Shown here piece after piece: positions 12,690 to 64,000 of a DNA stretch of 64,000 nucleotides. Position 1 is the first letter of the stretch. Each line of letters starts with the position of its first letter. Made by a program: the position numbers and the translations under genes. The notes beneath the pieces were generated by a model. The model made no database searches. It saw only the letters and a program-made list of their open reading frames with translations, and was not told the origin of the DNA. The DNA comes from Escherichia coli (GTDB lineage: Bacteria; Pseudomonadota; Gammaproteobacteria; Enterobacterales; Enterobacteriaceae), in the NCBI RefSeq assembly GCF_022846255.1, contig NZ_AP025682.1. One strand, written 5' to 3'.

Positions 12690-12696
12690 ATAAACG

Positions 12697-14461
<1,765 letters not shown>

Positions 14462-14775: not shown

Positions 14776-14825
14776 AGTGCGGTATCAGTATTCAGGTAGC
14801 TGTTGAGCCTGGGGCGGTAGCGTGC
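14776..14825 (+). promoter_or_regulatory. JUMPstart region with ops element GGCGGTAGCGTG (14813-14824) in the waaQ operon leader
   Basis: Exact 12-nt ops sequence about 50-100 nt upstream of the waaQ start on the coding strand; RfaH-dependent antitermination is established for waaQ operons. Confidence 0.7.
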
Positions 14826-14873
14826 TTTTTCTGCTTCACCTTAATCGGATAATCTCAACAAAAAGAGTTACTT

Positions 14874-17843: not shown

Positions 17844-17858
17844 TTTCCGGAGAGAAAT

Positions 17859-18875
17859 ATGAGTGCCCACTATTTTAATCCACAAGAGATGATCAATAAG
17901 ACAATCATCTTCGATGAAAGGCCAGCGGCGTCAGTGGCATCATCATTCCATGTTGCTTATGGCATTGATAAAAACTTTCTTTTTGGTTGTGGTGTTTCAA
18001 TCACGTCAGTTTTGTTACATAACAACGACGTGAGTTTTGTTTTCCACGTTTTTATTGATGATATCCCTGAAGCTGATATCCAGCGTTTAGCCCAATTGGC
18101 GAAAAGCTATCGTACCTGTATCCAGATCCATCTGGTAAATTGTGAACGGCTTAAGGCATTACCGACGACCAAAAATTGGTCTATTGCCATGTATTTCCGT
18201 TTTGTAATTGCAGATTACTTTATTGATCAACAAGATAAGATCCTTTACCTGGATGCTGATATCGCCTGTCAGGGAAACTTAAAGCCGCTGATAACAATGG
18301 ATCTTGCCAATAACGTTGCTGCTGTTGTTACTGAACGCGATGCTAACTGGTGGTCGTTACGGGGTCAAAGTCTGCAGTGTAATGAACTTGAAAAGGGTTA
18401 CTTTAATTCAGGTGTCCTGTTAATTAATACACTAGCGTGGGCGCAGGAGTCCGTTTCTGCTAAAGCGATGTCGATGCTTGCTGATAAAGCCATCGTTTCC
18501 CGTTTAACCTATATGGATCAAGATATCCTTAATCTTATCCTGTTAGGGAAAGTTAAATTCATTGATGCTAAATACAATACGCAATTTAGTTTAAATTATG
18601 AATTAAAAAAATCATTTGTTTGTCCAATTAATGATGAAACCGTATTAATTCATTATGTCGGCCCGACAAAACCCTGGCATTACTGGGCCGGTTATCCAAG
18701 TGCGCAACCTTTTATCAAAGCCAAAGAAGCATCGCCCTGGAAAAATGAACCGTTAATGCGGCCAGTTAACTCAAACTATGCTCGTTATTGCGCCAAGCAT
18801 AATTTTAAACAAAATAAACCAATTAACGGGATAATGAATTATATTTATTATTTTTATTTAAAGATAATAAAATGA
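17859..18875 (+). CDS. waaO: Outer-core family-8 glycosyltransferase, by position WaaO (alpha-1,3-glucosyltransferase)
   Basis: 338-aa ORF with GT8 hallmarks (YGIDKNFLFG..., YLDADI..., NSGVLLIN); first gene after waaP as in R1/R4 core loci; assignment rests on family plus gene order. Confidence 0.7.
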   Translation: MSAHYFNPQEMINKTIIFDERPAASVASSFHVAYGIDKNFLFGCGVSITSVLLHNNDVSFVFHVFIDDIPEADIQRLAQLAKSYRTCIQIHLVNCERLKALPTTKNWSIAMYFRFVIADYFIDQQDKILYLDADIACQGNLKPLITMDLANNVAAVVTERDANWWSLRGQSLQCNELEKGYFNSGVLLINTLAWAQESVSAKAMSMLADKAIVSRLTYMDQDILNLILLGKVKFIDAKYNTQFSLNYELKKSFVCPINDETVLIHYVGPTKPWHYWAGYPSAQPFIKAKEASPWKNEPLMRPVNSNYARYCAKHNFKQNKPINGIMNYIYYFYLKIIK

Positions 18876-18891
18876 AATTGAGAAAAGTTAA

Positions 18892-19887
18892 ATGAATGAA
18901 TTTATAAAAGAACGGTTTTCGTATTTAGCAGATAATAAAAAAGAAAACGCCCCAGAGCTAAATGTTTCCTACGGTATCGATAAGAATTTTTTGTATGGTG
19001 CTGGCGTTTCAATTTCTTCCGTTTTGATTAATAATTCAGATATTAATTTTGTCTTTCATGTTTTCACTGATTATGTGGATGATGATTATTTAAAGTCATT
19101 TAATGAAACAGCAAAACAATTTAATACCTCAATTATTGTATATTTAATTGACCCCAAATACTTTGCTGATCTGCCGACGTCACAGTTTTGGTCGTACGCG
19201 ACATACTTCAGGGTATTGTCTTTTGAATATCTGAGTGAAAGTATTTCCACACTGCTGTATCTGGATGCCGATGTTGTTTGTAAAGGAAGCCTGAAACCTC
19301 TCACAGAAATTATATTTAAAGATGAGTTTGCTGCGGTCATTCCTGACAATGATAGTACTCAGGCGGCATGTGCAAAACGCCTCAACATTCCCGAAATGAA
19401 TGGACGTTATTTCAATGCAGGCGTTATCTATGTCAATCTTAAAAAATGGCATGAAGCAAATTTGACACCGTATTTACTCACGCTTTTACGAGGGGAAACT
19501 AAATATGGCTCTCTTAAATATTTAGATCAGGATGCGTTGAATATCGCATTTAATATGAATAATATCTACCTCGCGAAGGATTTTGATACTATTTATACCC
19601 TGAAAAACGAACTTCATGATCGTAGTCATCGAAAGTATCAGCAAACCATTACCGATAAAACAGTATTGATTCACTATACAGGGATAACTAAACCATGGCA
19701 TAGCTGGGCTGGATATCCGTCTGCATCATACTTTAATATCGCGCGTGAACAATCTCCCTGGAAGAAATATCCTCTTAAAGAGGCGCGGACTGTTGCAGAA
19801 ATGCAGAAACAATATAAGCATCTGTTTGCCCATGGTGAGTATATAAAAGGCATAACTTCATTAATTAAGTACAAGCTTAAGAAATAA
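18892..19887 (+). CDS. waaT: Outer-core family-8 glycosyltransferase, by position WaaT (alpha-1,2-galactosyltransferase)
   Basis: 331-aa GT8-like ORF (YGIDKNFLYGAGVSISS..., YLDADVVCKG, NAGVIYVN); second GT8 gene in the operon. Confidence 0.6.
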   Translation: MNEFIKERFSYLADNKKENAPELNVSYGIDKNFLYGAGVSISSVLINNSDINFVFHVFTDYVDDDYLKSFNETAKQFNTSIIVYLIDPKYFADLPTSQFWSYATYFRVLSFEYLSESISTLLYLDADVVCKGSLKPLTEIIFKDEFAAVIPDNDSTQAACAKRLNIPEMNGRYFNAGVIYVNLKKWHEANLTPYLLTLLRGETKYGSLKYLDQDALNIAFNMNNIYLAKDFDTIYTLKNELHDRSHRKYQQTITDKTVLIHYTGITKPWHSWAGYPSASYFNIAREQSPWKKYPLKEARTVAEMQKQYKHLFAHGEYIKGITSLIKYKLKK

Positions 19888-19896
19888 ATTACTCTT

Positions 19897-20589
19897 ATGA
19901 TTACAAGTATACGTTATCGCGGCTTCTCATTTTATTACAAAGATAATGATAATAAATATAAAAAAATCTTTGATGAAATACTGGCCTATAATTTTAAAAC
20001 AGTAAAAGTATTACGTAATATTGATGATACCAAAGTATCGTTGATTGATACGAAATATGGTCGCTATGTTTTTAAAGTCTTTGCTCCGAAAACGAAAAGG
20101 AATGAACGTTTTTTAAAATCTTTTGTAAAAGGTGACTACTATCAGAATTTGATCGTTGAAACCGATCGTGTCAGAAGTGCAGGTCTTACTTTTCCTAATG
20201 ATTTTTATTTTCTGGCTGAGCGTAAAATTTTCAACTATGCCAGTGTTTTTATCATGCTTATCGAGTATGTCGAGGGCGTAGAGCTCAATGATATGCCGAT
20301 TATTCCAGAAAATGTTAAAGCAGAAATTAAGGCTTCAATGGAAAAATTGCATGCCTTAAATATGCTATCGGGCGACCCACACCGGGGTAACTTTATCGTT
20401 AGTAAAGATGGTGTCAGGATAATTGACCTATCCGGTAAAAGCTGTACGGCAGAGCGTAAAGCTCGTGATCGTCTGGCCATGGAACGTCACCTGGGTATTG
20501 CCAACGAAATAAAAGATTATGGCTACTATTCAGTAATCTACAGAACCAAACTACGCAAATTTATTAAAAAATTAAAAGGCAAAGCGTAA
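19897..20589 (+). CDS. waaY: LPS core heptose(II) kinase WaaY
   Basis: 230-aa ORF MITSIRYRGFSFYYKDNDNKYKKIFDEILAY... with kinase-like motifs (HGDPHRGNF); right size and position for WaaY. Confidence 0.8.
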   Translation: MITSIRYRGFSFYYKDNDNKYKKIFDEILAYNFKTVKVLRNIDDTKVSLIDTKYGRYVFKVFAPKTKRNERFLKSFVKGDYYQNLIVETDRVRSAGLTFPNDFYFLAERKIFNYASVFIMLIEYVEGVELNDMPIIPENVKAEIKASMEKLHALNMLSGDPHRGNFIVSKDGVRIIDLSGKSCTAERKARDRLAMERHLGIANEIKDYGYYSVIYRTKLRKFIKKLKGKA

Positions 20590-20614
20590 ACCACACAGTC
20601 AAAACGGAACCAAC

Positions 20615-21643
20615 ATGGATTTATTAGCTGAGAGTATTACTGAAGTCGCTGTCTCTGGGGAAATTGCTAACACCGATCGTGTGTTAAATATCGCTTACGG
20701 TATTGACCGCAACTTTTTATTTGGTGCGGCAGTATCTATGCAATCAGTTGTTATGCATAACCCGGACCTTGCGGTTAAGTTTCATCTCTTTACTGACTAC
20801 ATTGATGAAGATTATCTACAACGTGTTAATGCTTTTACCAGCAAAAATGCTAACGTTGAAGTAAGAATTTATAAAGTATCCAGTGCCTTTATTGATATCT
20901 TCCCCAGCCTGAAACAGTGGTCTTATGCAACATTCTTCCGTTTAGTTGCGTTCCAGTATCTGAGTGAAACTATTGAAAATCTGTTATATATCGATGCTGA
21001 TGTCATCTGTAAAGGCTCATTAGCTGGATTGCTTGATATTAATTTTGATGGCGATAAGTTCGCAGCTGTTATTAAAGATGTGCCTTTTATGCAGGAAAAA
21101 CCAGCGAAGCGTCTGGCTATAGAGGGGCTTCCAGGGAATTATTTCAACGCCGGTGTAGTATATCTGCAGCTTGAAGCATGGGCGAAAAATGATTTTATGA
21201 ATAAAGCCATTGCTATGCTGGCAAGTGACCCGCAGCACACGAAATATAAATGCCTTGACCAGGATATTTTAAATATTCTGTTCTTTGGTCATTGTATTTT
21301 TATTAGCGGCGATTATGATTGCTTTTATGGCATTGACTATGAGTTAAAAAATAAAAGCGATGAAGATTATAAAAAGACCATTACCGATGATACTAAGCTG
21401 ATTCATTATGTTGGCGTAACGAAGCCCTGGAACGACTGGACGAATTATCCCTGCCAGAAGTATTTTAATGAGGCTTATCAGGCTTCTTGCTGGAATGATG
21501 TGGCGTTTATTCCAGCAACGAATGAAAAGCAGTATCAAGTGAAATCCAGACATTTGAAAAGAAATGGTAAAATTGCATCTTCATTTTACTATTTCATGCT
21601 CTATTATAGTAAGAAAATAGCGCGTAAGCATTTTTCCAAATAA
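20615..21643 (+). CDS. waaW: Outer-core family-8 glycosyltransferase, by position WaaW (alpha-1,2-galactosyltransferase)
   Basis: 342-aa GT8-like ORF (YGIDRNFLFGAAVSMQS..., YIDADVICKG, NAGVVYLQ); third GT8 gene, following waaY. Confidence 0.6.
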   Translation: MDLLAESITEVAVSGEIANTDRVLNIAYGIDRNFLFGAAVSMQSVVMHNPDLAVKFHLFTDYIDEDYLQRVNAFTSKNANVEVRIYKVSSAFIDIFPSLKQWSYATFFRLVAFQYLSETIENLLYIDADVICKGSLAGLLDINFDGDKFAAVIKDVPFMQEKPAKRLAIEGLPGNYFNAGVVYLQLEAWAKNDFMNKAIAMLASDPQHTKYKCLDQDILNILFFGHCIFISGDYDCFYGIDYELKNKSDEDYKKTITDDTKLIHYVGVTKPWNDWTNYPCQKYFNEAYQASCWNDVAFIPATNEKQYQVKSRHLKRNGKIASSFYYFMLYYSKKIARKHFSK

Positions 21644-21674
21644 TTATTAAGATTAATCATCCAGAGATTTTTTA

Positions 21675-22448
21675 ATGAACTTGCCCATTTATATTGTCTC
21701 ACTTAAAAGAGATATTGAGCGAAGAAATAAAATAAATGATGTTTTTCATCGATTAAATATTAATTTTGATTTTTTTGATGCCATAGATGCTAAAGACCCT
21801 CAAAATAAAGAAATTATTGATAAAATGAGATTAAGTGGTGTCGGCGCAGAAATGACTGATGGAGAAATTGCTTGTACATTAAGTCATCAGCTTATATATC
21901 AGGATATGATAGATAAAAATATAGAATGGGCAGTCATTCTCGAGGATGATGTTATCGTCAATGAGAGATTTAAAAAATTTCTGCAATATTTTAATCTTTC
22001 TGAAAAAGACAAGTTAAAACATAATAATTTGTATTTGCTTGGAGGACAGAAAGGATTACATGATTATCCGGTATTGGGGCAAAGCCTTTTTAGTAAAGTT
22101 AAGGTAAGTACTTGTACTTTTCGGCGTGTTAATTTCAATAAAAATAAAATTCGGCGTACATGTTCATATTTGATGAATAAAGATATGGCACAAAAGTTGC
22201 TCAAATTGACAATGGATTGTGGCACCTATCGAGCTGATAGCTGGAAGTTAATGCATCAACATAATATTATAAAAGATTTTTATTTAGACGAAATAATATT
22301 ACATCCTATTTTAAATGAGTTTAATAGTCACCTTGAAAGTGAAAGGCTTTTAATATCGGAAAAAAAACAACCCAGGACAAGGCTTCAGAAAAAAATGAAG
22401 TTTATACGTTCCTGGATAAAGGTGGCTTTTTTTTCTCTTTTGAAATGA
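21675..22448 (+). CDS. Family-25-like beta-glycosyltransferase (LgtB/Lic2A-like): WaaV (R1) or WaaX (R4)
   Basis: 257-aa ORF MNLPIYIVSLKRDIERRNKINDVF...FDFFDAIDAKD...ACTLSHQLIYQDMIDKN...AVILEDDVIV resembles LgtB-type transferases; I cannot tell WaaV from WaaX without a reference alignment. Confidence 0.7.
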   Translation: MNLPIYIVSLKRDIERRNKINDVFHRLNINFDFFDAIDAKDPQNKEIIDKMRLSGVGAEMTDGEIACTLSHQLIYQDMIDKNIEWAVILEDDVIVNERFKKFLQYFNLSEKDKLKHNNLYLLGGQKGLHDYPVLGQSLFSKVKVSTCTFRRVNFNKNKIRRTCSYLMNKDMAQKLLKLTMDCGTYRADSWKLMHQHNIIKDFYLDEIILHPILNEFNSHLESERLLISEKKQPRTRLQKKMKFIRSWIKVAFFSLLK

Positions 22449-22482
22449 GATTGTTAATTTAAATTTATTGTGAGATATTAAC

Positions 22483-23736
22483 GTGGAAGTAAAAATTGAG
22501 CAATTTCGAAATAACAGCTGTAATTTTATTTTTTTATTATATTTAATCGGTTTATTGTTTGTGCCAATTGATCTAAATATTACCACTAAAATAATTAATG
22601 CTACAGGTGCATTTTCTCTTTTTTTATTAATTGTAAATAACAAGCATAATTATAATAAAAATATCATTATATTAATTCTTGGCTTACTTCTTTTGGGTGC
22701 AATGAACCTGATATGGTATGAGTTTTATAAAACAGAAGATGTAGTATATAGAAATGCTTATCGAGGCTATCTTGAGTCTGGAAAACTATTAGTATTTAGC
22801 TCGTTGACATTTTTATTACTAAGTAAAAATAAATTCAGGCAAAATGAAAAGCTACATTTTATTTCAGCTATCTTAGTTCAAATAATCATGCTATGTAGAG
22901 CATATTATCAAGGGATATATTTGCATGCAGACCGCATTCCCCTCTCCGCCATGAATGGGAATATTGGTCAGATGGGGGCAGCGACTATTGCGGCTTATGT
23001 GATTACATTCACTACTTTATATTCTTCAATTGTATTCATCAAAATGCAATCGAAATATAAATGGTTTCTATTTTATGCTAACTTTGCTTTAAGCTTTGCA
23101 GCAGTAATGATGACAGGAACACGTGCGGCAATTTTCACATTCCCACTTATGATTATGGTCATATTATTTCTTCAGCATCGTGATCAAAAAGTGTTTTTAT
23201 TTAAAGGATTGAGTGGTGTTTTTATATTGCTACTTGCTTGTGGTTTGATATTTAATAAGGAAATTGAGAGGCGAATTAATTCATTAAAAGCTGATGTTAT
23301 TTCATATGCTACAAAAAATAACAGTCAATCCTCGGTCGGAGCACGTTTTGCAATGGTTAATGCAGGAATTAAAGGAAGTCCTGATGGTTTTAATTGGCAA
23401 TCTCTTGAGCAGCGTGCTGAAAAGATAAAAGCATTAAGTGCAGAAAATAATATTTATAGTGGAGCTTTATTATTCCTTGATGTACATATGCATAATGAAA
23501 TTGTTGAATCTCTTTCCACGAAAGGAAAAATTGGTCTTCTTGTTCTTATTATGTTCTATGTTGCAATGATCTATTACTGTATCCGGGAGAAAAAATATAT
23601 ACTCTTGGTTTTCCCTGCTTCTATTATGTTATTTGGCATTAGTGATGTCATTACACATGCTAAACCAATACCGGCATCGTGGATTGTGTGCCTCTTCCTG
23701 TCTATATCGTTTTTGAGTAAAAAAGAACCACAATAA
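22483..23736 (+). CDS. waaL: O-antigen ligase WaaL (polytopic membrane protein)
   Basis: 417-aa, highly hydrophobic, AT-rich ORF at the end of the central waa operon; the track start is a GTG at 22483 and the true start is uncertain; called from position and topology rather than sequence identity. Confidence 0.7.
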   Translation: MEVKIEQFRNNSCNFIFLLYLIGLLFVPIDLNITTKIINATGAFSLFLLIVNNKHNYNKNIIILILGLLLLGAMNLIWYEFYKTEDVVYRNAYRGYLESGKLLVFSSLTFLLLSKNKFRQNEKLHFISAILVQIIMLCRAYYQGIYLHADRIPLSAMNGNIGQMGAATIAAYVITFTTLYSSIVFIKMQSKYKWFLFYANFALSFAAVMMTGTRAAIFTFPLMIMVILFLQHRDQKVFLFKGLSGVFILLLACGLIFNKEIERRINSLKADVISYATKNNSQSSVGARFAMVNAGIKGSPDGFNWQSLEQRAEKIKALSAENNIYSGALLFLDVHMHNEIVESLSTKGKIGLLVLIMFYVAMIYYCIREKKYILLVFPASIMLFGISDVITHAKPIPASWIVCLFLSISFLSKKEPQ

Positions 23737-23751
23737 TAAAAGCGTTGACTA

Positions 23752-23778
23752 AGTAAGTGGGTATAATGCCCACTTACT
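23752..23778. terminator. Hairpin AGTAAGTGGG-N7-CCCACTTACT between convergent waaL and waaC
   Basis: Perfect 10-bp inverted repeat in the 47-bp gap between the two stops; possible bidirectional terminator, inferred. Confidence 0.4.
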
Positions 23779-23783
23779 ATTTA

Positions 23784-24743
23784 TTAAATCAATGTGATTT
23801 TTTTATAAACAGCCGCTGCTTCTAAATTATTTAAATTCATTAGCGGAGCCCTACAAACCATCTGATTCTTCCCATACCCACCAATTAATCCCGGATCGGT
23901 AGGTCCATAAACCGTGATATTGGGTCTATCCAGTGCCGCCGTTAAATGGCTTAACCCCGTATCCACCGACACTACAAATTTAGCCCCGGCCAGTACGCGG
24001 GCAACGCCTTCCAGACTCATCTTCGGCAATACTTCAACATAAGCAAATCCTTCCGCCAGTCGTTTCGCCCGTTCTTCCTCATGCGGCGCGCCCCACGGAA
24101 GTTTAATCCGTATTCCTGAATCAGCCAGTAAACCAATCAATTCTCGCCAGTGTTCTTCCGGCCAGTGTTTATCATCTCGGGTTGTTGCATGAAGAAATAC
24201 GGCATATTCGCCAGCATCTGTAGGCAGGTTCGTCAGGAAATGCTGTGCGATAGCATAATCGCCCTGGGTTTGTGGTTTGCTATAGCCCAGACTTTTGGCA
24301 AACAGTTCGCGGGTGCGTTCTACGGCGTGCTGCTGTTTTGCAATATGATGTTTACGATTGTAAAACAGGCTGGCTAACGGTTCGCGAGCGGTTTGCCAGT
24401 CCATTCCATGCTTTACGCCATGCGCCAGACGCGTCACCAGCGCCGCGCTTTTTACCAGCCCCTGGGCGTCGATAACTGCGTCATAGTTCTTTGCTTGTAG
24501 CGCTTCACGAAACGCTTTGCGTTCAGCTTTTATGGGAGCCGAGAACCAGGCTTTACGCCAGCGACGTATTGCCACAGGAATAACTCGCTCAACGGCAGCG
24601 TGCCAGGAAGGAATCTGTGCGAACCCTTCTTCCACCACCCAGTCAAACTTAATCCCTGGGATTGCCTGCTGGGCATCAGTGAGTGCGGGCAGCGTGTGGA
24701 GAACATCGCCCATCGACGATGTTTTAACGATCAGAACCCGCAT
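23784..24743 (-). CDS. waaC: LPS heptosyltransferase I WaaC
   Basis: 319-aa ORF MRVLIVKTSSMGDVLHTLPALTDAQQAIPGIKFDWVVEEGFAQIPSWH... Confidence 0.9.
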   Translation of the reverse strand: MRVLIVKTSSMGDVLHTLPALTDAQQAIPGIKFDWVVEEGFAQIPSWHAAVERVIPVAIRRWRKAWFSAPIKAERKAFREALQAKNYDAVIDAQGLVKSAALVTRLAHGVKHGMDWQTAREPLASLFYNRKHHIAKQQHAVERTRELFAKSLGYSKPQTQGDYAIAQHFLTNLPTDAGEYAVFLHATTRDDKHWPEEHWRELIGLLADSGIRIKLPWGAPHEEERAKRLAEGFAYVEVLPKMSLEGVARVLAGAKFVVSVDTGLSHLTAALDRPNITVYGPTDPGLIGGYGKNQMVCRAPLMNLNNLEAAAVYKKITLI

Positions 24744-26735: not shown

Positions 26736-26948
26736 AACTGTAACCTTCGAATTATGGAGTCAGAGACAATCTCAGACACGAATACTTCTATCATATCACT
26801 ACATGACGTTGGCTTCAGCCATTCACCAAAAGTGAGGGGGCTGGACGTTATTTATCCTGAATTTTGCAGAAGTGTTAACGCGTCATCTCGTCGCGACCTA
26901 TAAGTTTGGGTAATATGTGCTGGAATTTGCCCTGTCTGGAGAATCGCA

Positions 26949-42273: not shown

Positions 42274-42357
42274 GCCGGATGCGGCGTGAACGCCTTATCC
42301 GGCCTACAGGGTAGTGCTGAATCACCCCGTAGGCCTGATAAGCGTAGCGCATCAGGC
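42274..42357. repeat. BIME: two inverted REP elements between the adhesin gene 3' end and the lldP promoter
   Basis: GCCGGATGCGGCGTGAACGCCTTATCCGGCCTAC followed by inverted REP GTAGGCCTGATAAGCGTAGCGCATCAGGC. Confidence 0.75.
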
Positions 42358-42389
42358 AATGTGGCGTTTACCCATTTGTTAATGGATCA

Positions 42390-45300
42390 TTACCACTGAA
42401 TACCAGCACCGAGTGCGGCGGAGTATTCACCCTGGCTATTGGTACTACCTTGTAATTTGTAGACCCAACGACCATTGGCGCTCACCATCGACACACCTAA
42501 AGCAACAGCCGATTCACCGTTGTAAGTACCGCCACCAATAGACGCCATGCTGGCACCCGGCGTGTAAGCCTGCGGCAGACCGGTCATTGCCATTGCAGAA
42601 GCGATACCACCACTCAGCTTGCTTTCAGTTTTGGACAGTTTGTTATCCATCTCAACCATGCGCTGATCGGTGTATTGCTTCGTTTCCTGCACACTTTGCT
42701 TCAACTGCGCATAGTTCACTGCGTCGTTGTTGTTCACGCCAGCAGAAACGTTGCTGATGCGAGTCGTACCGCTATTGCCGCCACCGAGAGTGATGTTGCT
42801 GTAGTCGATAGAGCCATCAGCTTTGGTGTCGTAGCGCACGCCGCCTGCTTCAGAAGACTTCAGTTGCGAAACGTTAACCGCATCGGTGGCATTAACACCG
42901 GCAGCAACGTTGGTGATACGGCGCTGGTTGGTAGAAGAACCCACAGAGATCGTATTTTCTTCGTCTGCTACGGAACCCGTGCCCAGTGCGACGCTGTTGT
43001 CAGCGGCAGCAATGGAACCAGAACCAATCGCAACACTGTCTTTACCCTGCGCGTTGGCGTCTGCGCCATCGGTGTTGGTCTTGAAGTACTTAGTGCTACC
43101 GGTGGTTACGATATCGCCAATGCCGTTTTCGATATTGGTCACGCGAGTATCCAGATTAGTGACCTGAGTGTTCAGGTTAGTAATGCTCTGGGTATTCTGG
43201 GAAACCTGCGCGTCCGTTACTTTCAACTGACCCACGTTAACCGCATCGGTATCCGCCGAACCTGCTGCGACGTTGGTGATCTGACGTTGACCGTCTTCAC
43301 TGCCGACAGAGAACTCACCCACAGAGTTCTGCGGTGCGTCCATGTTGTAGGCAGTGTAGTTGGTCTGCGCGCCACGGGTAGTCTGAGAACCATTACCCAT
43401 TGCAATGCTGTCGGCATGATTTGCGCGTGCGTTAGAACCGATAGCAATACCGTTGATCGCATCAGCCAGAACTAAAGTGTTCAGGCCGATACCAATACCC
43501 GCATTACCATTAACGATGGTTTTCGCGCCCATTGCCAGCGAGTCTTCACCGACTGCCAGTGAGTCTTCAGCCGTTGAGTTGGCGTGATAGTATTTGGTTG
43601 GTGTGGTTGCGACTGCACCAATGGCGTTCTGCAACTGGCGAACAGTAACAGCGTCATGGGCTTCAGAACCATCCGCGACGTTGATGATTTGACGATATTT
43701 ACCATCATCACCGATCGACAATGCACCAAGCAGTTCGCCGTCAGTTGTGTCATAACCAATAACCACTCCATCTTCTGTTACGCTGGTAGAGCGTGAACCT
43801 TTCAAAATGACCCGGTTAGAGACCGAATTGCTGCCTAATGCGATGCCGGAATCGATAGTGCTACTGCTGTTCTGACCAATCGCGACACTGCTTTCCCCGG
43901 AAGCGACAGAGTTATAACCCACAGCCGTTGAGCCAACGCCCGCGGCGCTTGCGTCGACAAAGGTTAAGCCCGTGTCGTTGGTGCGAACATAGTTAATACC
44001 CGCCCCATTTTCTTCGATATAGGTACTGTTAGTATTACCGGCGAGTTGGTTGATGATCTCACTATTCTGATTGATCAACATATTCGCGGCATACAACTGA
44101 GAACCGTTAACGGCATCGGTACTGGCGGCAGAAAGTTCACCTGCGGCAACATTCGTGATTTTGCTGGTGGTGTTAGTGCCGTGCGCCGCAGAGAATGAGC
44201 CGGATACGGAATCCCACGTCATCGCATCTTCACCGAGACTGTCGATAGCATCAGTCAGATTGGTGATGTTGGTAGTGTTAGTGGCAACGTCAGTGGTCAG
44301 ATTACTGATATTGGTGGTGTTGGCTGCCACATTCTCGTTGGTAGTATTCAACTGAGAGCCATTAATCGCATCAGTACTGGTGGCACTGATCTCACCCGCA
44401 GCAACATAAGCGATTTTGCTGGCACTACCACCGTGACTGGCACTGAAACTGCCTGAAGCGTTGTCCCAGAGCAGGGCATCGCCGAGTGAGGTTCCGACCG
44501 AAGTGTTAATGGCTGCCAGGGCATCGCCTACGCTGTTGTAGTCAGTTCCATTAATACTATAGGTTGGGCCAGTAAATACACCTGTATCACTTACAGTGGC
44601 ACCGCCACCAAAATAATCCGCTACCGTACTGCTAAGACCGTAGAGTTGTCCACCGTTCACGGCATCGGTACTGGTGGCAGAAATAGCACCTGCGGTGACA
44701 TTGGTGATTTTGCTGGTGGCGTCAGTGCCGTGCGCAGCGCTGAATGCTGTGCCCTTCCACAACAGAGAATCGTCACCGAGACTGTCAACAGCGTCAGTCA
44801 GGTTAGTGATACTGGTGGTATTGCCAGCGACGTCGTTGGTCAGATTAGTGATATTGGTAGTGTTGGCAGCAACATCGTCTTTGGTGGCTTTCAACTGCGA
44901 ACCGTTAACGGCGTCAGTGCTGCCAGCTGTCAGGTCACCGGCTTTGACATTGGTGATTTTGCTGGTGGCGTCAGTGCCGTGCGCAGCGCTGAATGCTGTG
45001 CCCTTCCACAACAGAGAATCGTCACCGAGACTGTCAACAGCGTCAGTCAGGTTAGTGATACTGGTGGTATTGCCAGCGACGTCGTTGGTCAGATTAGTGA
45101 TATTGGTAGTGTTGGCAGCAACATCGTCTTTGGTGGCTTTCAACTGCGAACCGTTAACGGCGTCAGTGCTGCCAGCTGTCAGGTCACCGGCTTTGACATT
45201 GGTGATTTTGCTGGTGGCGTCAGTGCCGTGCGCAGCGCTGAATGCTGTGCCCTTCCACAACAGAGAATCGTCACCGAGACTGTCAACAGCGTCAGTCAGG

Positions 45301-47021
45301 TTAGTGATACTGGTGGTATTGCCAGCGACGTCGTTGGTCAGATTAGTGATATTGGTAGTGTTGGCAGCAACGTCGTCTTTGGTGGCTTTCAACTGCGAAC
45401 CGTTAACAGCGTCAGTGCTGCCAGCAGTCAGGCTGCCAGCACTGACGTTGGTGATTTTGCTGGTGGCTTCGGTGCCGTGTGCGGCACTGAATGCTGTGCC
45501 GTTCCACAACAGAGCATCCTGCTGCAGGTCGTACAATTGAGAGCCGTTTACTACATCGGTGCTGGTTGCAGAAACCGTACCTTTAGCAACATTAGTGATT
45601 TTGTTGGTGGCATTTGCACCGTGATTGGCGCTGAACGCCCCCGCGGTTTTATTCCATTGTAGGGTATTATTGTCGATTCCTGACAGAGCATCACCCACGT
45701 TATTATAGGTTCCGCTTCTCAACGCGTAGCTTACTGCGGTTACGGTGCCATCGCTGCCTACAGTAGCGCCTCCTCCGAGTCGCTTGGCGACTGAATCACT
45801 GATCGTATAAAGCTGTGAGCCGTTGATGGCATCGGTACTGGTGTTGCTTATGGCACCAGCAGCCATATTAACAATTTTGCGTTTTGTTGCGCTGTTGCCA
45901 ACTGAAACCGTATTGCTTGCATCTGTGGTCGATCCTGCGCCGATAGCGACAGAATTGTCGGTCGCTGCTGCAGCCCCTACACCGAGGGCGACAGAATCAT
46001 TGCCGTTTGCCCTGGACTGGCTACCGAAAGCAAGGCTGTTGCTGCCACCAGCGGCACTACCCTCTCCCAATGCGATGGCATTCTCTCCCGAGGACAAACT
46101 GTTACTTCCCAACGCGATTGAGTTCACTTTGCTTGCAATGCTACCTTGCCCCAGCGCAATCGCATTTTGTTCGCTGGCTTCACTGGTGTTACCTAATGCA
46201 ATACTGGATTCGCCAGATGCCTGACTTGCATTACCCAGGGCCATCGAATTCACTCCCAGGGCTTGCGTTTTGTTCCCAATCGCGATGGCGTTATCGTTCG
46301 AACTGATACTGTCAGCACCTATTGCCAGTGAGCCAGTGCTATTAGCTGTAGATTGTCTGCCGAATGCGAGGCTATCAGCACCGGCAGCATTGCTACTTGC
46401 TCCCAGCGCCATTGCATAATCTTTTGACGCATTGGCATTATCACCGAGGGCGATGCTCATAATTTCGTAAGCTTTAGCCGAATTTCCTAACGCAATAGTT
46501 TTTTCACCATCGGCAAGGGAGGAGTCCCCAATAGCAAGAGATGTATAACCATTCGTCTTTGCGTAACGACCAAAAGCCATCGAACGATCGCCATTTGCTA
46601 CTGACGATGCACCCAGCGCGACACTTCTGTCACCCATTGATTTTGCACTAACCCCGAACGCCATGGATGCTCCACCAGTTGCAAGGGTTTTTGACCCGAT
46701 GGCAGAACTGTACTCACCTTCGGCTATCGCGTCATATCCTAAAGCTGTACTCGCGCCACTAGTGTTCATAAAGGTATTTGCTTTTGCCCCTTTACCGATA
46801 GCAACCCAGCCGTCACCTGCTGAGCCATCGCCATAATCAGTTGGCTGCCCGTCGTAGTTATTAGCTAACGCTCCAAACGACGACAACAACCCACCCGCAA
46901 CCAACGCAGAAATTAACAGCTTACTGCGCCCGCTTTTTTTACCACGGCTCTTCGCCGTTTCGCTGGCAACGCTGTAACTGCCCGTCGCCGGGTTCCAGAT
47001 AACTTTAAATATTTTATTCAT
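42390..47021 (-). CDS. upaG: Trimeric autotransporter adhesin, UpaG/EhaG/SadA family (1543 aa)
   Basis: N-terminal extended signal peptide [21 protein letters not shown]...; long low-complexity stalk with tandem repeats; C-terminal YadA-like anchor ending ...[13 protein letters not shown]; located between yibL and lldP, where UpaG/EhaG sit. Confidence 0.85.
44640..45620. repeat. Tandem 249-bp (83-codon) direct repeats inside the adhesin gene, about 3 near-identical copies plus diverged flanking copies
   Basis: Segment ttggtgattttgctggtggcgtcagtgccgtgcgcagcgctgaatgctgtgccc... recurs near 44701, 44950 and 45199; the protein shows the unit [25 protein letters not shown]...[11 protein letters not shown] three times. 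Confidence 0.85.
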
Positions 47022-47064
47022 TATTGATGCTCTCTATTCCTTGATATAAGCGCAGAGGCTGCAT

Positions 47065-47748
47065 TTATTTTTTGTTTTTCCGCTGTGGAGATTCAGCAGT
47101 TTGAAGACGGTCGAACTGAATATTTGCCATGTTGATGGCTAATTTCAGATATTTGAGGTTGTTGGGCGAGACACCTTTTAGCGTCAAATTAATGTCTTGC
47201 CATTGACCTGGTAATAATTTCAGGGAGGAGTTCATTGAGGTACTAAATAGCAATTGCTGCCATTTTGCTAATGCGTTGATGTCGGTGGGTTTTTCTCCCC
47301 CCCATGTCGCGTAGAAACCCATATTTGATACAGGAACACTTAATAAGTTAACCAGTGAAATACGAATAACGCTGCCGTTTTCTACTGCGTCAATAGACAG
47401 TATTTTCCCTGCCAAACCAACAGAACCGTTATTTAAAATGAAGTATTGGGTTTGTGCCGGGTTAAATTCTGTAAAGACAAATTCGTCCTGTTTGTCTTTA
47501 ACTGCCTTCACCACGCCAGCGAGCGTTTTGGTACTGTTTATGATGGTAGTTTGTTGTTTTTCAAAGTGTTCTATCTTGCGCTTGTCGAGTTCTTGTTGTT
47601 TTTCAAGCGCCTCAATTTTGCTTTTTTGTAACTCTTGCTGTGTAACGAGATCGTCGACCTTACTCGCTTTTTCAATATAGTCACACCCTACCAATAAGCA
47701 AAGTTGCAATATCATTAACACGCTTAACAGTGTTTTCTTTAGGTTCAT
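47065..47748 (-). CDS. SadB-like lipoprotein encoded just upstream of the adhesin gene
   Basis: 227-aa ORF with lipoprotein signal peptide and lipobox (LLVGC), then a coiled-coil-like stretch (ELQKSKIEALEKQQELDKRKIEHFEKQQ) and a C-terminal domain; 43 bp upstream of and co-oriented with the adhesin gene, like Salmonella sadB-sadA. Confidence 0.65.
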   Translation of the reverse strand: MNLKKTLLSVLMILQLCLLVGCDYIEKASKVDDLVTQQELQKSKIEALEKQQELDKRKIEHFEKQQTTIINSTKTLAGVVKAVKDKQDEFVFTEFNPAQTQYFILNNGSVGLAGKILSIDAVENGSVIRISLVNLLSVPVSNMGFYATWGGEKPTDINALAKWQQLLFSTSMNSSLKLLPGQWQDINLTLKGVSPNNLKYLKLAINMANIQFDRLQTAESPQRKNKK

Positions 47749-48306
47749 AGGATGAATTCCTTTTCATAATCCCGATACAGTTGATAATTACGGCACAATC
47801 ATTTTTTTTATGAATAATTGGAGTGGGGCATATCCGCAAAATAAATTTGTTAGAGAATTTTTGTATTAATTGGTTGTGCGAATATGTTATTAAATGTCAA
47901 ACGATTTCAGTTTGTAGCCAATAATATTAATCGCGCGGATTTTAATGATCGGTGTCAATCGATGTCAAATGTTTCACCGGATAAAGGCACAGGGCATGGA
48001 AAGGTAAATATTCAGTTGAGTGATGTTTTATTGTGGAATTTGCGAAGATGATTGAAAAATTTAAATAATTAATTATGTTTCAAGCATTGATATGCGGCAA
48101 TTCATTGTTAATATTGATACATCGTTCTTTAATTTGTATCTGATTTTCAGAATTTAGCCTGGCATGTGCGCTAAAAAGAATAGAGGAGATTGAATATATA
48201 ATGTTAAGAACGTTATAAATATTCGATCTCTGAAACAGGCTCCTGCATGTGCCAGCAGGAGCGAGTAAATGGTGAGAGGCTGTGATTACAGCGACGAGAA
48301 AGGAAC

Positions 48307-53452: not shown

Positions 53453-53815
53453 ATGTTTCTAAACTATTTCGCGTTGGGAGTGCTGATCTTCGTCTTTCTG
53501 GTGATTTTTTATGGAATCATCGCGATACATGACATCCCTTATCTGATTGCCAAAAAGCGCAACCATCCCCATGCTGACGCTATTCATACGGCGGGCTGGG
53601 TGAGCCTGTTTACTCTGCATGTTATCTGGCCGTTCCTGTGGATCTGGGCGACGCTCTATCAACCGGAGCGCGGCTGGGGTATGCAGTCACATGTTGCGTC
53701 GCAGGAGAAAACGACTGACGCGGAAATCGCCGCACTTTCTGACCGGATTTCCCGGCTGGAGCACCAACTCGCCGCCGAGAAAAAGACTGACTATTCCACG
53801 TTCCCGGAGATCTAA
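53453..53815 (+). CDS. yibI: Small inner membrane protein YibI
   Basis: 120-aa [72 protein letters not shown]... Confidence 0.8.
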
Positions 53816-53817: not shown

Positions 53818-54954
53818 ATGGATCTATTGATTGTTTTAACTTACGTGGCGCTGGCGTGGGCGGTCTTTAAAATCTTCCGCATTCCGGTGAATCAGTGGAC
53901 GCTGGCGACGGCGGCGCTGGGAGGCGTGTTTCTGGTGAGTGGTTTGATTTTGTTGATGAACTACAACCACCCTTACACTTTTACCGCGCAAAAGGCAGTG
54001 ATAGCGATCCCCATCACGCCACAGGTGACGGGAATTGTTACTGAAGTCACCGACAAAAATAATCAGCTTATTCAGAAGGGCGAGGTGCTTTTTAAGCTCG
54101 ACCCGGTTCGTTACCAGGCGCGAGTTGACAGGCTTCAGGCTGACCTGATGACGGCGACGCATAATATAAAGACGCTGCGCGCGCAGCTCACTGAAGCGCA
54201 GGCCAACACCACCCAGGTTTCAGCGGAGCGCGACCGTCTGTTTAAAAATTATCAACGTTATCTGAAAGGCAGCCAGGCGGCGGTGAATCCGTTCTCGGAA
54301 CGTGATATCGACGATGCGCGGCAAAATTTCCTCGCGCAGGATGCGCTGGTGAAAGGCTCGGTGGCGGAGCAGGCGCAGATCCAGAGCCAGCTCGACAGTA
54401 TGGTTAACGGCGAGCAATCGCAGATTGTGAGCTTAAGAGCGCAACTTACTGAAGCAAAATATAACCTTGAGCAGACCGTCATTCGCGCACCGAGCAATGG
54501 CTACGTCACTCAGGTACTGATCCGCCCAGGTACATACGCCGCTGCCTTGCCGCTGCGTCCGGTGATGGTCTTCATCCCCGAGCAAAAACGGCAAATTGTC
54601 GCCCAATTTCGGCAAAACTCGCTGTTACGTCTGAAACCCGGCGATGATGCGGAAGTGGTGTTTAACGCGCTACCTGGGCAGGTGTTTCACGGCAAACTGA
54701 CCAGTATTTTACCTGTCGTGCCAGGCGGTTCTTATCAGGCGCAGGGGGTATTGCAATCATTAACGGTCGTGCCCGGCACGGACGGTGTGCTGGGAACCAT
54801 TGAACTGGACCCTAACGATGATATCGATGCCTTACCCGACGGCATTTACGCCCAGGTAGCAGTTTACTCCGACCATTTCAGCCATGTTTCGGTGATGCGG
54901 AAGGTGCTGCTGAGAATGACCAGTTGGATGCATTATCTTTATTTGGATCATTGA
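53818..54954 (+). CDS. yibH: HlyD-family inner membrane protein YibH
   Basis: 378-aa ORF with N-terminal TM segment, coiled-coil region and HlyD-like C-terminus; follows yibI by 2 nt. Confidence 0.85.
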
Positions 54955-55024
54955 GACTTGTATCACCTGTGTTTTGCGCGAGCCTGAGCCATACTGATAT
55001 TTTTCCTCGCACAAAGGACTCGGC

Positions 55025-55633
55025 ATGAAACTCGTCGGTAGCTACACCAGCCCGTTTGTACGCAAACTTTCTATTCTGTTGTTAGAAAAGGGCATAACGT
55101 TCGAATTTATTAATGAACTGCCCTATAACGCGGATAACGGCGTGGCGCAATTTAACCCGTTAGGAAAAGTACCGGTACTGGTGACCGAAGAGGGCGAATG
55201 CTGGTTTGATTCACCGATCATCGCTGAATATATTGAATTAATGAATGTTGCTCCGGCGATGTTGCCGCGCGATCCGCTGGAGTCGTTGCGGGTGCGCAAA
55301 ATTGAGGCACTGGCGGATGGCATTATGGATGCCGGGCTGGTATCGGTGCGTGAACAGGCGCGTCCGGCGGCGCAGCAGTCTGAAGATGAATTGTTACGTC
55401 AGCGTGAGAAAATCAACCGCAGTCTGGATGTGCTGGAAGGATATCTGGTCGATGGCACACTCAAAACCGATACGGTCAATCTGGCGACTATCGCCATTGC
55501 CTGTGCCGTCGGATATCTCAATTTCCGCCGCGTTGCGCCAGGCTGGTGTGTCGACCGCCCACACTTAGTCAAACTGGTCGAAAACCTGTTTAGCCGCGAA
55601 AGTTTTGCTCGCACCGAACCGCCAAAGGCTTGA
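55025..55633 (+). CDS. yibF: Glutathione S-transferase-like protein YibF
   Basis: 202-aa [75 protein letters not shown]... Confidence 0.85.
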
Positions 55634-55730: not shown

Positions 55731-57122
55731 ATGACAACCGAAACGCGTTCCCTCTATAGTCAACTTCCGGCTATTGATCGCTTATTGCGCGATAGCTCCT
55801 TCCTTTCTTTGCGTGATACTTATGGTCACACCCGCGTGGTGGAATTGCTGCGTCAGATGCTTGACGAAGCGCGAGAAGTGATTCGTGACAGCCAGACGCT
55901 GCCCGCGTGGTGTGAAAACTGGGCGCAAGAAGTCGATGCCCGGTTGACGAAAGAGGCGCAAAGCGCGCTGCGTCCGGTAATCAACCTGACAGGAACCGTG
56001 CTGCATACCAACCTTGGGCGAGCTTTACAGGCGGAAGCCGCGGTGGAAGCCGTTACGAAGGCTATGCGTTCGCCAGTGACCCTCGAGTACGATCTGGACG
56101 ACGCCGGACGCGGACATCGCGATCGGGCGCTGGCGCAGCTGCTGTGCCGTATTACGGGGGCGGAAGATGCCTGTATCGTTAATAACAATGCGGCGGCGGT
56201 GTTATTGATGTTGGCGGCCACTGCCAGCGGGAAAGAGGTGGTGGTTTCTCGCGGCGAACTGGTGGAGATTGGCGGCGCGTTTCGTATTCCCGATGTTATG
56301 CGTCAGGCAGGATGCACCCTACACGAAGTAGGGACCACCAACCGCACGCACGCGAATGATTATCGTCAGGCGGTGAATGAAAATACCGCACTGTTGATGA
56401 AAGTACATACCAGTAACTACAGCATTCAGGGGTTCACCAAAGCGATAGATGAAGCGGAACTGGTGGCGCTCGGCAAAGAACTGGATGTTCCAGTGGTGAC
56501 TGATTTAGGCAGTGGCTCGCTGGTCGATCTTAGCCAGTACGGTTTGCCGAAAGAGCCAATGCCGCAGGAGTTGATTGCGGCGGGCGTCAGTCTGGTGAGC
56601 TTCTCCGGCGACAAGCTGTTAGGCGGGCCGCAGGCAGGAATTATTGTTGGTAAAAAAGAAATGATCGCCCGCCTGCAAAGCCACCCGCTGAAGCGTGCAT
56701 TACGCGCGGATAAAATGACCCTCGCGGCGCTGGAAGCCACGTTGCGTCTTTATTTACACCCTGAAGCTCTGAGTGAAAAATTACCGACCCTGCGCCTGCT
56801 TACCCGCAGCGCAGAGGTCATTCAAATCCAGGCACAACGTTTACAGGCTCCCCTTGCCGCACATTACGGCGCGGAGTTTGCGGTACAGGTTATGCCATGT
56901 CTTTCGCAGATCGGCAGTGGTTCGCTGCCGGTTGATCGCCTGCCGAGCGCGGCATTAACGTTTACCCCCCATGATGGACGCGGTAGCCACCTTGAGTCAT
57001 TAGCCGCCCGCTGGCGTGAATTGCCAGTGCCGGTGATTGGTCGTATTTATGACGGACGATTGTGGCTGGATTTACGCTGCCTTGAAGATGAGCAACGTTT
57101 TTTGGAGATGTTGTTGAAATGA
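55731..57122 (+). CDS. selA: L-seryl-tRNA(Sec) selenium transferase
   Basis: 463-aa [52 protein letters not shown]... Confidence 0.95.
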
Positions 57123-58963
57123 TTATTGCGACTGCCGGACACGTTGACCACGGCAAAACAACCTTGTTGCAGGCGATTACGGGCGTAAATGCCGACCGTC
57201 TGCCGGAAGAAAAAAAGCGCGGCATGACCATCGATCTCGGCTATGCCTACTGGCCGCAGCCGGATGGTCGCGTGCCTGGTTTTATCGACGTACCCGGTCA
57301 TGAAAAGTTTCTTTCCAACATGCTGGCGGGCGTTGGTGGTATCGATCACGCGCTGTTGGTGGTGGCGTGCGATGACGGTGTGATGGCACAGACCCGTGAG
57401 CATCTGGCGATTTTGCAGCTGACCGGTAACCCGATGCTGACAGTGGCGCTGACCAAAGCCGATCGCGTGGACGAAGCGCGTGTTGATGAGGTTGAACGCC
57501 AGGTAAAGGAGGTGCTGCGGGAATACGGTTTTGCTGAGGCAAAACTGTTTATCACCGCAGCAACCGAAGGTCGGGGAATTGATGCCCTGCGCGAGCATCT
57601 GCTTCAGTTACCAGAACGTGAACACGCCAGCCAACATAGTTTCCGCCTCGCGATCGACCGCGCATTTACCGTAAAAGGTGCCGGGCTGGTCGTCACCGGT
57701 ACGGCGTTAAGCGGGGAAGTGAAAGTAGGCGATTCACTCTGGCTGACTGGTGTGAATAAACCGATGCGCGTGCGTGCGCTGCATGCGCAAAATCAGCCAA
57801 CAGAAACTGCCCATGCCGGGCAGCGTATCGCGCTTAACATCGCGGGTGATGCGGAAAAAGAGCAGATTAACCGTGGCGACTGGCTGCTTGCCGATGTGCC
57901 GCCGGAGCCGTTCACACGGGTGATTGTCGAGCTTCAAACCCATACACCGCTGACCCAGTGGCAGCCGCTGCATATTCACCACGCCGCCAGCCACGTTACG
58001 GGACGCGTTTCGCTGCTGGAAGATAACCTTGCCGAGCTGGTGTTCGACACGCCGCTGTGGCTGGCGGATAACGATCGCATAGTGCTGCGCGATATCTCGG
58101 CCCGCAACACGCTGGCGGGGGCGCGTGTGGTGATGCTTAACCCGCCGCGTCGCGGTAAGCGTAAGCCGGAATATCTGCAATGGCTGGCGTCTCTTGCACG
58201 GGCGCAGAGCGATGCCGATGCGTTATCTGTTCATCTGGAACGCGGCGCGGTTAACCTTGCGGATTTCGCCTGGGCACGGCAGCTCAACGGCGAAGGGATG
58301 CGCGAACTGCTGCAACAGCCTGGCTATATTCAGGCTGGTTACAGCTTGTTGAATGCGCCAGTTGCCGCCCGCTGGCAGCGGAAAATTCTCGACACATTAG
58401 CGACTTATCATGAGCAACATCGCGATGAACCTGGTCCTGGGCGCGAACGTCTGCGACGTATGGCGTTGCCAATGGAAGATGAAGCGCTGGTACTGTTGCT
58501 GATTGAAAAGATGCGCGAAAGCGGCGACATCCACAGTCATCACGGCTGGCTGCATCTGCCGGATCATAAAGCGGGCTTCAGTGCAGAGCAGCAGGCCATC
58601 TGGCAAAAAGCAGAGCCGCTGTTTGGTGACGAGCCATGGTGGGTGCGTGACCTGGCAAAAGAGACGGGAACCGACGAGCAGGCAATGCGCCTGACGCTAC
58701 GCCAGGCGGCGCAACAGGGGATAATTACTGCGATCGTCAAAGATCGTTATTACCGTAACGATCGGATTGTCGAATTTGCCAATATGATCCGAGATCTCGA
58801 TCAGGAATGCGGTTCAACCTGCGCGGCGGATTTCCGCGATCGCTTAGGCGTAGGCCGCAAGCTGGCAATTCAGATTCTGGAATATTTTGACCGTATTGGC
58901 TTTACGCGTCGTCGTGGAAATGATCATTTATTGCGCGACGCATTATTATTTCCGGAAAAATAA
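57119..58963 (+). CDS. selB: Selenocysteine-specific elongation factor SelB
   Basis: 614-aa [54 protein letters not shown]... (GTPase G1 motif); start overlaps the selA stop. Confidence 0.95.
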
Positions 58964-60350: not shown

Positions 60351-60429
60351 CTATCTCAAAACTTGCTTTTTTTGAGATAGTTTCTCTTTCCTGCTATACA
60401 CTATCTCAATATTGCGCTTTTTTGAGATA
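60351..60429. promoter_or_regulatory. Two related palindromes (CTATCTCAAAA-N7-TTTTGAGATAG and TATCTCAA-N12-TTGAGATA) 50 bp apart, immediately upstream of the Fic gene
   Basis: Palindromes at 60351-60379 (11-bp perfect arms) and 60402-60429 (8-bp perfect arms); the second ends 5 nt before the Fic ATG; operator role is inferred. Confidence 0.4.
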
Positions 60430-60434
60430 AGCAC

Positions 60435-61730
60435 ATGGCTATCAAATCACCTCCCGGACTTATTCCTTTATCACACTTATCGGGTGAGGAACTCCTGGCC
60501 CACCTGCGCTTTAACCGGGTTACCGATGAAAAAGGACGTTATCTGCCTTTTGATGAGTTGCAGTACCGCATCAAAAAAGGAGAAAACGTCGATGTGGCGT
60601 GGACGCTTACCCGTCTGGCGCGCAACGCGGCGATCCAACGAATTAATTATTGCAATGAAGCGGGTGAACAGGCCGGATTCAACATTACCCCGGTGATTGC
60701 AGAAGCGTGCGAGCTTGTCGACAAACGTGCTACCGCGCTGGCGCTGAAAGATCAGACTGAACGGTTACGCGGGGCCGGAGCCGAGTTAAGCCAGTTACGC
60801 CTGGAAGAGCCGATCACCAGCTCCCAGCTGGAAGGTGCGAATACTACAACGCTGGTGGCGAGAAAAATGCTGGAAACAGGGCGGTCGCCACGCACTGAAG
60901 ACGAGCATATGATTGCGGGAAATGCCCGGCTGATGGCGGAAATTCCGCACTTACTCGCAGAACCGCTGACACCTGCGCTTATTCGCCAGTTACATGCCAT
61001 TGGTATGGGTGGAATCAATGACGCGAAATATCGTCCGGGAGAATTTCGTGAAACAGATGATGTTGTGATCGCCGACTATGATGGCAATATAGTGCATCAA
61101 CCGCCCGCTGCGGCATTGTTACCGGAACGGCTGGAAAAAGTTTGCCAGTGGTTAAACAGCCATGAAGGGTATATTCATCCGTTGGTCCGTGCCTGCATTC
61201 TGCATTTTATGCTGGCCCATGAACATCCGTTTCGGGATGGCAACGGGCGCACCAGTCGGGCGCTGTTTTACTGGTATATGCTGAAATCGGGCTACGATGT
61301 CTTTAAATATATTTCCATCAGCCGTTTGCTTCATGCTGCACCGGTCAAATATGCCGCCAGCTACCAGTACACTGAATCAGATGGTATGGATCTGACTTAT
61401 TTCCTTGAATATCAGGCGGGTGTCATTAAACGTGCTCTGCAAAACTGGCAGCAGCATATCGATGAAATTACACAACGAAGCGCAAAACTCGATAGTGTGC
61501 TGTTTAGCTCTGGTGTGCTTAAACGCCTGAATCCGCGCCAGGTAACGCTCCTGAATGTGATGCTCGCCAATCCGGGGAAAGAGTACACAGTTGCTGAAAT
61601 TAGCGCGAGCCTGGGCGTCTCTGATAATACGGCTCGAGCTGATTTACGGACAATTGTTAAAGAAGGATTCGCGCAAGAGAAAAGAATTAATAACCAGCAA
61701 GCAGTGTACGTCGCACACTACCCGCTGTAG
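60435..61730 (+). CDS. Fic-domain protein (Fic core [14 protein letters not shown], upstream inhibitory-type motif SSQLEG, C-terminal winged-HTH-like region)
   Basis: 431-aa ORF; canonical HxFx(D/E)GNGRxxR Fic motif; a [S/T]xxxE[G/N] segment (TSSQLEGAN) N-terminal to it; C-terminal [36 protein letters not shown] looks like a wHTH. Confidence 0.8.
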
Positions 61731-61837
61731 CTTTTGCCCGTAAATTCGTGATAGCCGTCGTAAAGCTGTTACCGGCTGGCGAAGATTTCGCCAGTCACGT
61801 CTACCCTTGTTATACCTCACACCGCAAGGAGACGATC

Positions 61838-63376: not shown

Positions 63377-63387
63377 TGTGAAAGGCT

Positions 63388-63407
63388 GCCCGGCGTGTAT
63401 TGCCGGG
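63388..63407. terminator. Hairpin GCCCGGC-N6-GCCGGGC between convergent aldB and the epimerase gene
   Basis: GC-rich inverted repeat in the 46-bp convergent gap; possible bidirectional terminator, inferred. Confidence 0.4.
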
Positions 63408-63422
63408 CACTATCAGGTATGG

Positions 63423-64000
63423 CTACTGCCCGTAATAGGCATTGGCCCCATGCTTACGCAGGTAGTGCTTATCCAGCAGTTCGTTTTGCATCGCAGGGAG
63501 CTGTGGCGCAAGCTGGCGCGAGAACAGACCCATATAGGCGCACTCTTCCAGTACCACGGCGTTATGCACCGCATCGGCGGCATTTTTTCCCCAGGCGAAC
63601 GGGCCGTGAGAATGCACCAGTACCGCCGGGATTTGTGCCGGGTTCAACCCACGCTCTTCGAAGGTTTTAATGATCACTTTGCCGGTCTGGTATTCATACT
63701 CGCCGTTGATCTCTTCTGCGGTCATCAGGCGCGTGCAGGGGATGGCTCCGTAAAAATAATCGGCGTGAGTAGTGCCCCAGGCGGGGAGATCAAGTCCGGC
63801 CTGCGACCAGATGGTGGCGTGGCGCGAGTGGGTATGCACTATGCCGCCAATCTCCGCAAAGCGACGGTAAAGCGCCAGATGCGTTGGCGTGTCGGAAGAG
63901 GGCTTTTTGCTGCCTTCCACCACCTTGCCGCTGGCTATCTCAACCACCACCATATCGTCGGCGGTCATTACCTCATACTCAACGCCGGAAGGCTTAATCA
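63423..64000 (-). CDS. L-ribulose-5-phosphate 4-epimerase (class II aldolase family; SgbE-like), C-terminal part; 5' end beyond window
   Basis: Partial [77 protein letters not shown]...[14 protein letters not shown]; SgbE, AraD and UlaF paralogues cannot be separated without alignment. Confidence 0.7.

Follow-up and report, generated by a model that had tools for sequence, protein, structure and literature searches.

The rhsA element of Escherichia coli K-12 reportedly measures 8,249 bp, and Feulner et al. are said to have described in 1990 an Rhs-free strain in which an unrelated 32-bp sequence stands in its place. On the K-12 map (NC_000913.3), rhsA, yibA, the pseudogene yibJ, yibG, yibS, yibW, yibV and yibU lie between yibF (3761347-3761955, minus strand) and yibH (3770243-3771379, minus strand). 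The insert has the classic Rhs composition, with a GC content of about 60% in the core and of 27-39% in most of the downstream tip region. The passage of PMC3150448 that cites Vlazny and Hill (1995) states that the toxicity of RhsA-CT is neutralised by YibA. The yibF/yibH site was later numbered 10 of 11 rhs loci, and its presence or absence was scored in 20 strains of E. coli and Shigella (Jackson et al. 2009, BMC Genomics 10:584, PMC2935791). Locus 10 was absent from the group of pathogenic strains without the clade I rhs expansion, and the authors inferred for it an origin later than the divergence of that group (PMC2935791).

We analysed the corresponding site in a stretch of E. coli DNA of 64,000 nucleotides, hereafter called the window. 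A preliminary description of this DNA had noted that only about 70 bp separate the yibH stop from the yibF start, had placed rhsA and a set of small genes between the two in K-12, and had concluded that the Rhs toxin cassette is absent and that the spacer marks an empty insertion site. This placement agrees with the NC_000913.3 map, which also rules out a possibility raised in the same description, namely that yibH and yibF are adjacent in K-12 too.

Structure of the yibH-yibF junction

The site lies within a co-oriented run of genes, yibI-yibH-yibF-selA-selB, whose orientation in the window is opposite to that of the K-12 map. On the left flank, yibI (53453-53815, plus strand; 120 aa; Pfam DUF3302, E 2.7e-41) is the first gene of the yibI-yibH pair and is followed by yibH (53818-54954, plus strand), a 378-codon ORF for a HlyD/EmrA-type periplasmic adaptor (HlyD-family membrane-fusion protein), which ends with a TGA codon at 54952-54954. 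On the right flank, yibF (55025-55633, plus strand; 202 codons) starts with an ATG at 55025, and its glutathione S-transferase-like product of 202 aa gave a full-length match to the NCBIfam equivalog PRK10357 (glutathione S-transferase), with an E value of 7e-123. Downstream of yibF, and in the same orientation, are selA (55731-57122, plus strand; TIGR00474, E 2.4e-190) and then selB (57119-58963). These five names are those given by the RefSeq annotation to near-identical DNA in matching genomes. The spacer between yibH and yibF (54955-55024, plus strand), which is the unoccupied RhsA site, measures exactly 70 bp by the ORF coordinates, in line with the earlier estimate, and has a GC content of 50%.

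The junction was aligned with K-12, a check that the preliminary description had proposed, by a two-arm BLAST of window positions 54500-55400 against the K-12 locus. The yibH arm showed 98% identity to K-12 without gaps up to its last base at 54955, the base after the stop codon, and the yibF arm, also ungapped and 98% identical, started at 54988, 37 bp ahead of the yibF ATG. The interval enclosed by the two arms amounts to 32 bp in the window and to 8,249 bp in K-12. The 32-bp segment, ACTTGTATCACCTGTGTTTTGCGCGAGCCTGA (54956-54987, plus strand), is thus delimited by breakpoints between 54955 and 54956 and between 54987 and 54988, and comparison with the K-12 locus returned no counterpart better than chance words of 9-10 nt. 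The right breakpoint is straddled by a non-coding block of 17 nt, GCCTGAGCCATACTGAT (54982-54998, plus strand), which is the most conserved part of the spacer; K-12 keeps only its right-hand part, GCCATACTGAT, after CACCAG. As judged from the alignment, the K-12 state corresponds to an insertion plus a replacement of 32 bp and not to a simple insertion. The term empty insertion site is therefore correct in that the site is unoccupied, but it does not describe a clean insertion point, as 54956-54987 are replaced in K-12.

Searches of the 64-kb window with K-12 RhsA, YibA, YibG and YibV (tblastn) and with the whole 8,249-bp K-12 insert (blastn) returned no matches, which bears out the reported absence of the Rhs toxin cassette. 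The window likewise contains no GC-rich core ORF of about 3.7 kb for a YD-repeat protein, nor an AT-rich toxin tip followed by a small immunity ORF of the yibA, yibG or yibV types. Its flanks are colinear with K-12 up to the element borders, where 32 bp unrelated to K-12 replace the 8,249-bp element, which is the arrangement of an RhsA-null allele.

The ends of the K-12 insert were also inspected; terminal inverted repeats reached at most 7 bp and direct repeats at most 5 bp. The flanks, which end in TTGAG on the left and resume with GCCAT on the right, are not duplicated; hence there is no target-site duplication, and 32 bp have been lost instead. The features of an integrase or transposase island site (repeats, an att site or a tRNA core) were not found at yibH-yibF.

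Several other differences from K-12 were observed in the window. A segment of about 6 kb between lldP and yibL (42332-48306), absent from K-12, carries on the minus strand a 1,543-aa YadA-type trimeric autotransporter adhesin of the UpaG/EhaG type (42390-47021), with an ESPR signal, YadA head and stalk repeats and an anchor domain, and a 227-aa ORF (47065-47748, minus strand) that has no Pfam match and is annotated as DUF3251 in relatives. Between yiaY and aldB, the region 60357-61734 holds a Fic-family gene (60435-61730, plus strand; 431 aa; Pfam Fic, E 5.7e-20) that is absent from K-12 and present in Z0117EC0036 and O157:H7. At 63377-63424 aldB abuts sgbE, and the K-12 genes yiaT, yiaU, yiaV and yiaW (about 4.2 kb) are absent. 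The products of yiaW-yiaV, the paralogous pair of yibI-yibH, share 75-77% amino-acid identity with those of the latter, and with yiaW-yiaV absent only one of the two DUF3302/HlyD pairs is therefore kept in this region. The LPS outer-core (waa) region (17739-23845) is not of the K-12 type, with a WaaL homologue that is 31% identical and no homologues of WaaB, WaaS, WaaU or WaaZ within the waa region of the window; the conserved inner waa cluster (5207-17739) is 92.5% identical to K-12. Remnants of dinD are found at 5029-5207, where about 177 bp stand in place of 724 bp of K-12 and only fragments were recovered by tblastn, and htrL is absent at 26783-26845, where about 60 bp replace about 1.28 kb of K-12.

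Distribution of the empty and occupied alleles in E. coli

A population survey of the site was carried out on 5,426 complete E. coli genomes using a 2.3-kb probe and a 169-bp junction probe. The uninterrupted junction, including the 32 bp, was found in 1,522-1,523 genomes (28%) with 97.6-100% identity. The genomes with a split match, among those listed, all break at exactly 54955 and 54988. K-12-type junctions with full probe coverage were found in 3,745 of the 5,426 genomes on the yibF side and in 3,723 on the yibH side, corresponding to a K-12-type occupied site in about 69% of the collection (about 3,720-3,745 genomes), and other arrangements account for about 3%. The yibH-yibF locus is essentially two-state, either empty or occupied with constant borders. 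With junctions that are exact to the base in more than 5,000 genomes, it is a useful phylogenetic marker.

The distance between the two arms was measured in four occupied genomes and amounted to 8,249 bp in K-12, 8,237 bp in O26:H11 11368, 6,496 bp in an O157:H7 strain and 6,148 bp in 266917_2; tips and immunity genes differ among these four alleles. In each of the five further empty alleles examined, from E. coli and other Escherichia, the arms lay 32 bp apart. A side observation was made in O26:H11 11368, in which the yibH copy beside the occupied RhsA site (locus L026, 19333-20399) is annotated as a frameshifted pseudogene.

The occurrence of Rhs cores elsewhere in the same genomes was assessed with a 3.7-kb RhsA core probe, which matched 3,903 of the 5,426 genomes. 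The 1,523 genomes without a core match correspond almost exactly in number to those with an empty site. A chimeric probe, combining 1.6 kb over the empty junction with 1 kb of core, was then evaluated on 60 rows evenly spaced down the ranking. The sample included 17 empty-site genomes, 16 of which had no RhsA-type core match anywhere, while all the occupied genomes in it had 4-7 matching places. The sole exception among the 17 was XYEH3934 (NZ_CP110978.1), whose site is empty and yet core matches are present elsewhere (three places in total, two of them additional). Given this genome, the association between an empty site and a genome free of Rhs cores is tight but not absolute.

Among the complete genomes ranked, the closest was Z0117EC0036: it matches the window at 100% identity across 1,602 bp, and no part of its genome matches the RhsA-type core. 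Taking related genomes as a proxy, the source strain of the window is probably without the whole RhsA/B/C/F-type family. At the window locus, the consequence is that no RhsA toxin, YibA immunity protein or orphan tips are present, and that the strain has one toxin/immunity cassette fewer and one large repeat fewer for chromosomal rearrangement.

Outgroup loci and history of the site

Outgroup loci were collected by running a degenerate pattern for the yibF N-terminus over species-representative genomes, which returned 19 loci; E. albertii, E. fergusonii, E. marmotae and E. ruysiae were not caught by the pattern. The genes yibI-yibH-yibF-selA are adjacent in Escherichia sp. E1V33, in SCPM-O-B-8794, in five Kluyvera-group and three Atlantibacter genomes and in a record labelled C. 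freundii M-21. Mangrovibacter and Siccibacter are without yibIH, and in them mtlA adjoins yibF. Since the flanking genes of E1V33 and SCPM-O-B-8794 are 7-15% divergent from the window, these two genomes are genuine outgroups. The spacer is alignable across the loci in which yibI-yibH-yibF-selA are adjacent, and the 32-bp segment of E1V33 and SCPM-O-B-8794 shows only 3-4 substitutions relative to the window. In the alignment, GCCTGAGCCATACTGAT is identical in the window, in the E. coli empty alleles and in four Kluyvera-group genomes, with 1-2 differences in E1V33 and SCPM-O-B-8794.

Because the 32 bp cannot arise by deleting the element, and because the same spacer is found in the outgroup species, these comparisons indicate that the empty yibH-yibF arrangement is the ancestral state, and that the window allele represents the ancestral sequence and not a deletion scar. 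We consider it very probable that the 70 bp are an ancestral spacer that was never occupied, and that the Rhs element was inserted once in an E. coli lineage with the removal of 32 bp. The element itself combines a GC-rich core ORF with downstream AT-rich modules for the toxin tip, immunity and orphan tips. Entry presumably occurred by illegitimate recombination, since neither a target-site duplication nor terminal repeats are found. The derived allele is now carried by roughly 69% of sequenced E. coli, with an internal content that varies from 6.1 to 8.2 kb and constant junctions, and the window represents the other allele.

A K-12-type yibF-side junction with about 180 bp of K-12-like element DNA was observed in MOD1-EC7003, a non-coli Escherichia (locus L021, 10310-13271). 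Beyond the junction lie unrelated ORFs, including an H-repeat/ISAs1-like transposase fragment, and no Rhs core was found in the 2.9 kb before the contig end. The derived allele therefore extends beyond E. coli proper, possibly in a degraded form in this genome. The insertion either predates E. coli proper or crossed species boundaries, which complicates a history in which it took place once and within E. coli.

The empty junction might alternatively have been reached by secondary loss, in which an RhsA-bearing ancestor regained the empty allele from an Rhs-free donor through allelic replacement via the yibH and yibF-selA flanks. Empty alleles were found on at least two diverged flank backgrounds, one B2-like and the other of the O145/100181 type, and the occupied alleles are also diverse; alleles may therefore have moved between lineages by homologous recombination. 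Such exchange would be compatible with the state of the site in O145 RM12522, which is empty while that of O157:H7 is occupied. The flanks of the window, however, point to a lineage without the element. They show no differences from Z0117EC0036 over the 3,976 bp of the yibF-selA-selB arm and 6 over the 1,503 bp of the yibI-yibH arm, and 8 differences from ATCC 25922 over 2,135 bp of the yibF arm and 18 over the 1,503 bp of the yibI-yibH arm. The corresponding values against K-12, O157, O26, O145 and strain 100181 are about 24-37 differences per arm. The window locus thus appears B2-like and groups with ATCC 25922 and Z0117EC0036, B2-type genomes without the element. The inference that locus 10 arose once this group had branched off (Jackson et al. 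2009, PMC2935791) speaks against a replacement as well, and agrees both with the polarity of the alleles and with the B2-like flanks of the window. Moreover, the absence of any RhsA-type core from Z0117EC0036 fits a lineage that never had the family better than one that lost each copy. Allelic replacement is thus an unlikely origin of the window allele, and a spacer that was never occupied is the reading we retain. The window strain carries the ancestral allele of a classic E. coli presence/absence locus, which fits its B2-like background.

Over a longer stretch of 24 kb, the best-ranked complete-genome matches to the window reached 96.7-98.4% identity, in 3-5 pieces. Among the occupied alleles, K-12 and O157 differ by only 5 positions over 1,503 bp, and 266917_2 is as far from them as the empty alleles are (four occupied and five empty alleles compared). 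It had been considered that a low flank diversity of the occupied alleles might point to a recent origin of the derived allele; this idea was dropped, as 266917_2 is divergent and few alleles were sampled (four occupied and five empty).

Deletion or excision of an element once present, with the 70-bp spacer left as a scar, has nothing in its favour except that Rhs elements in general serve as substrates for recombination. Positions 54956-54987 are absent from K-12-type loci, so that removal of the element cannot yield them, and they are homologous to the spacer of the outgroup species; furthermore, excision finds no support in the ends of the element, where neither terminal repeats nor a target duplication are present. 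We regard this origin as highly improbable. An assembly artefact is scarcely credible: short-read assemblies can break at Rhs cores, which are about 3.7 kb long and repeated in multiple copies, but their collapse or omission by the assembler would not make a unique 32-bp sequence common to 1,522 independently finished genomes and to the outgroups.

The region upstream of yibF and comparison with known rhs loci

In the window, yibF keeps its native upstream sequence and lies directly downstream of yibIH. Promoter and terminator scans of positions 54700-55200 returned no sigma-70-like or terminator-like site within the spacer. As no terminator is predicted there, read-through from yibIH into yibF would be allowed. 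The conservation of GCCTGAGCCATACTGAT (54982-54998) suggests that the block may contain the -10 region of a yibF promoter. A regulatory hairpin was also considered in view of an imperfect pairing, seen by eye, between 54974-54982 and 55006-55014; this candidate was rejected, since the folding energy of -16.6 kcal/mol compares with a mean of -19.3 kcal/mol for shuffled sequences (z = +0.84).

On the same grounds of conservation, it is conceivable, although doubtful, that GCCTGAGCCATACTGAT is a native promoter or regulatory part of yibF(-selAB), and that the acquisition of RhsA rewired the expression of the glutathione S-transferase-like gene yibF and perhaps of the selenocysteine genes. Were this the case, yibF would remain under its ancestral control region in empty-site strains, where transcripts might also read through from yibIH, whereas Rhs-bearing strains would have element DNA upstream of position -37 of yibF and yibIH would be uncoupled.

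The locus described here can be compared with three known systems. With respect to the K-12 RhsA element, made up of the rhsA toxin gene, the yibA immunity gene and downstream orphan tips, the chromosomal site is the same and the flanks share 97-98% identity as far as the breakpoints, but none of the components of the element is present in the window. The comparison is closest with the RhsA-null allele attributed to Feulner et al. (1990), since both of its figures, 8,249 and 32 bp, are matched exactly by the two-arm alignment and no structural difference is apparent. Rhs locus 10 of Jackson et al. (2009) has the same flanking genes, and the window provides an additional example of its absent state; base-level junctions for locus 10 are not given in that paper (PMC2935791). 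The difference in gene content at yibH-yibF was thus already known, and the feature is an ordinary one. The present survey leaves the current understanding unchanged and adds to it allele frequencies from 5,426 genomes, the finding that the junctions are constant and the outgroup evidence for the ancestral 32 bp, which provides a clear polarity for a locus that these earlier systems had already described.
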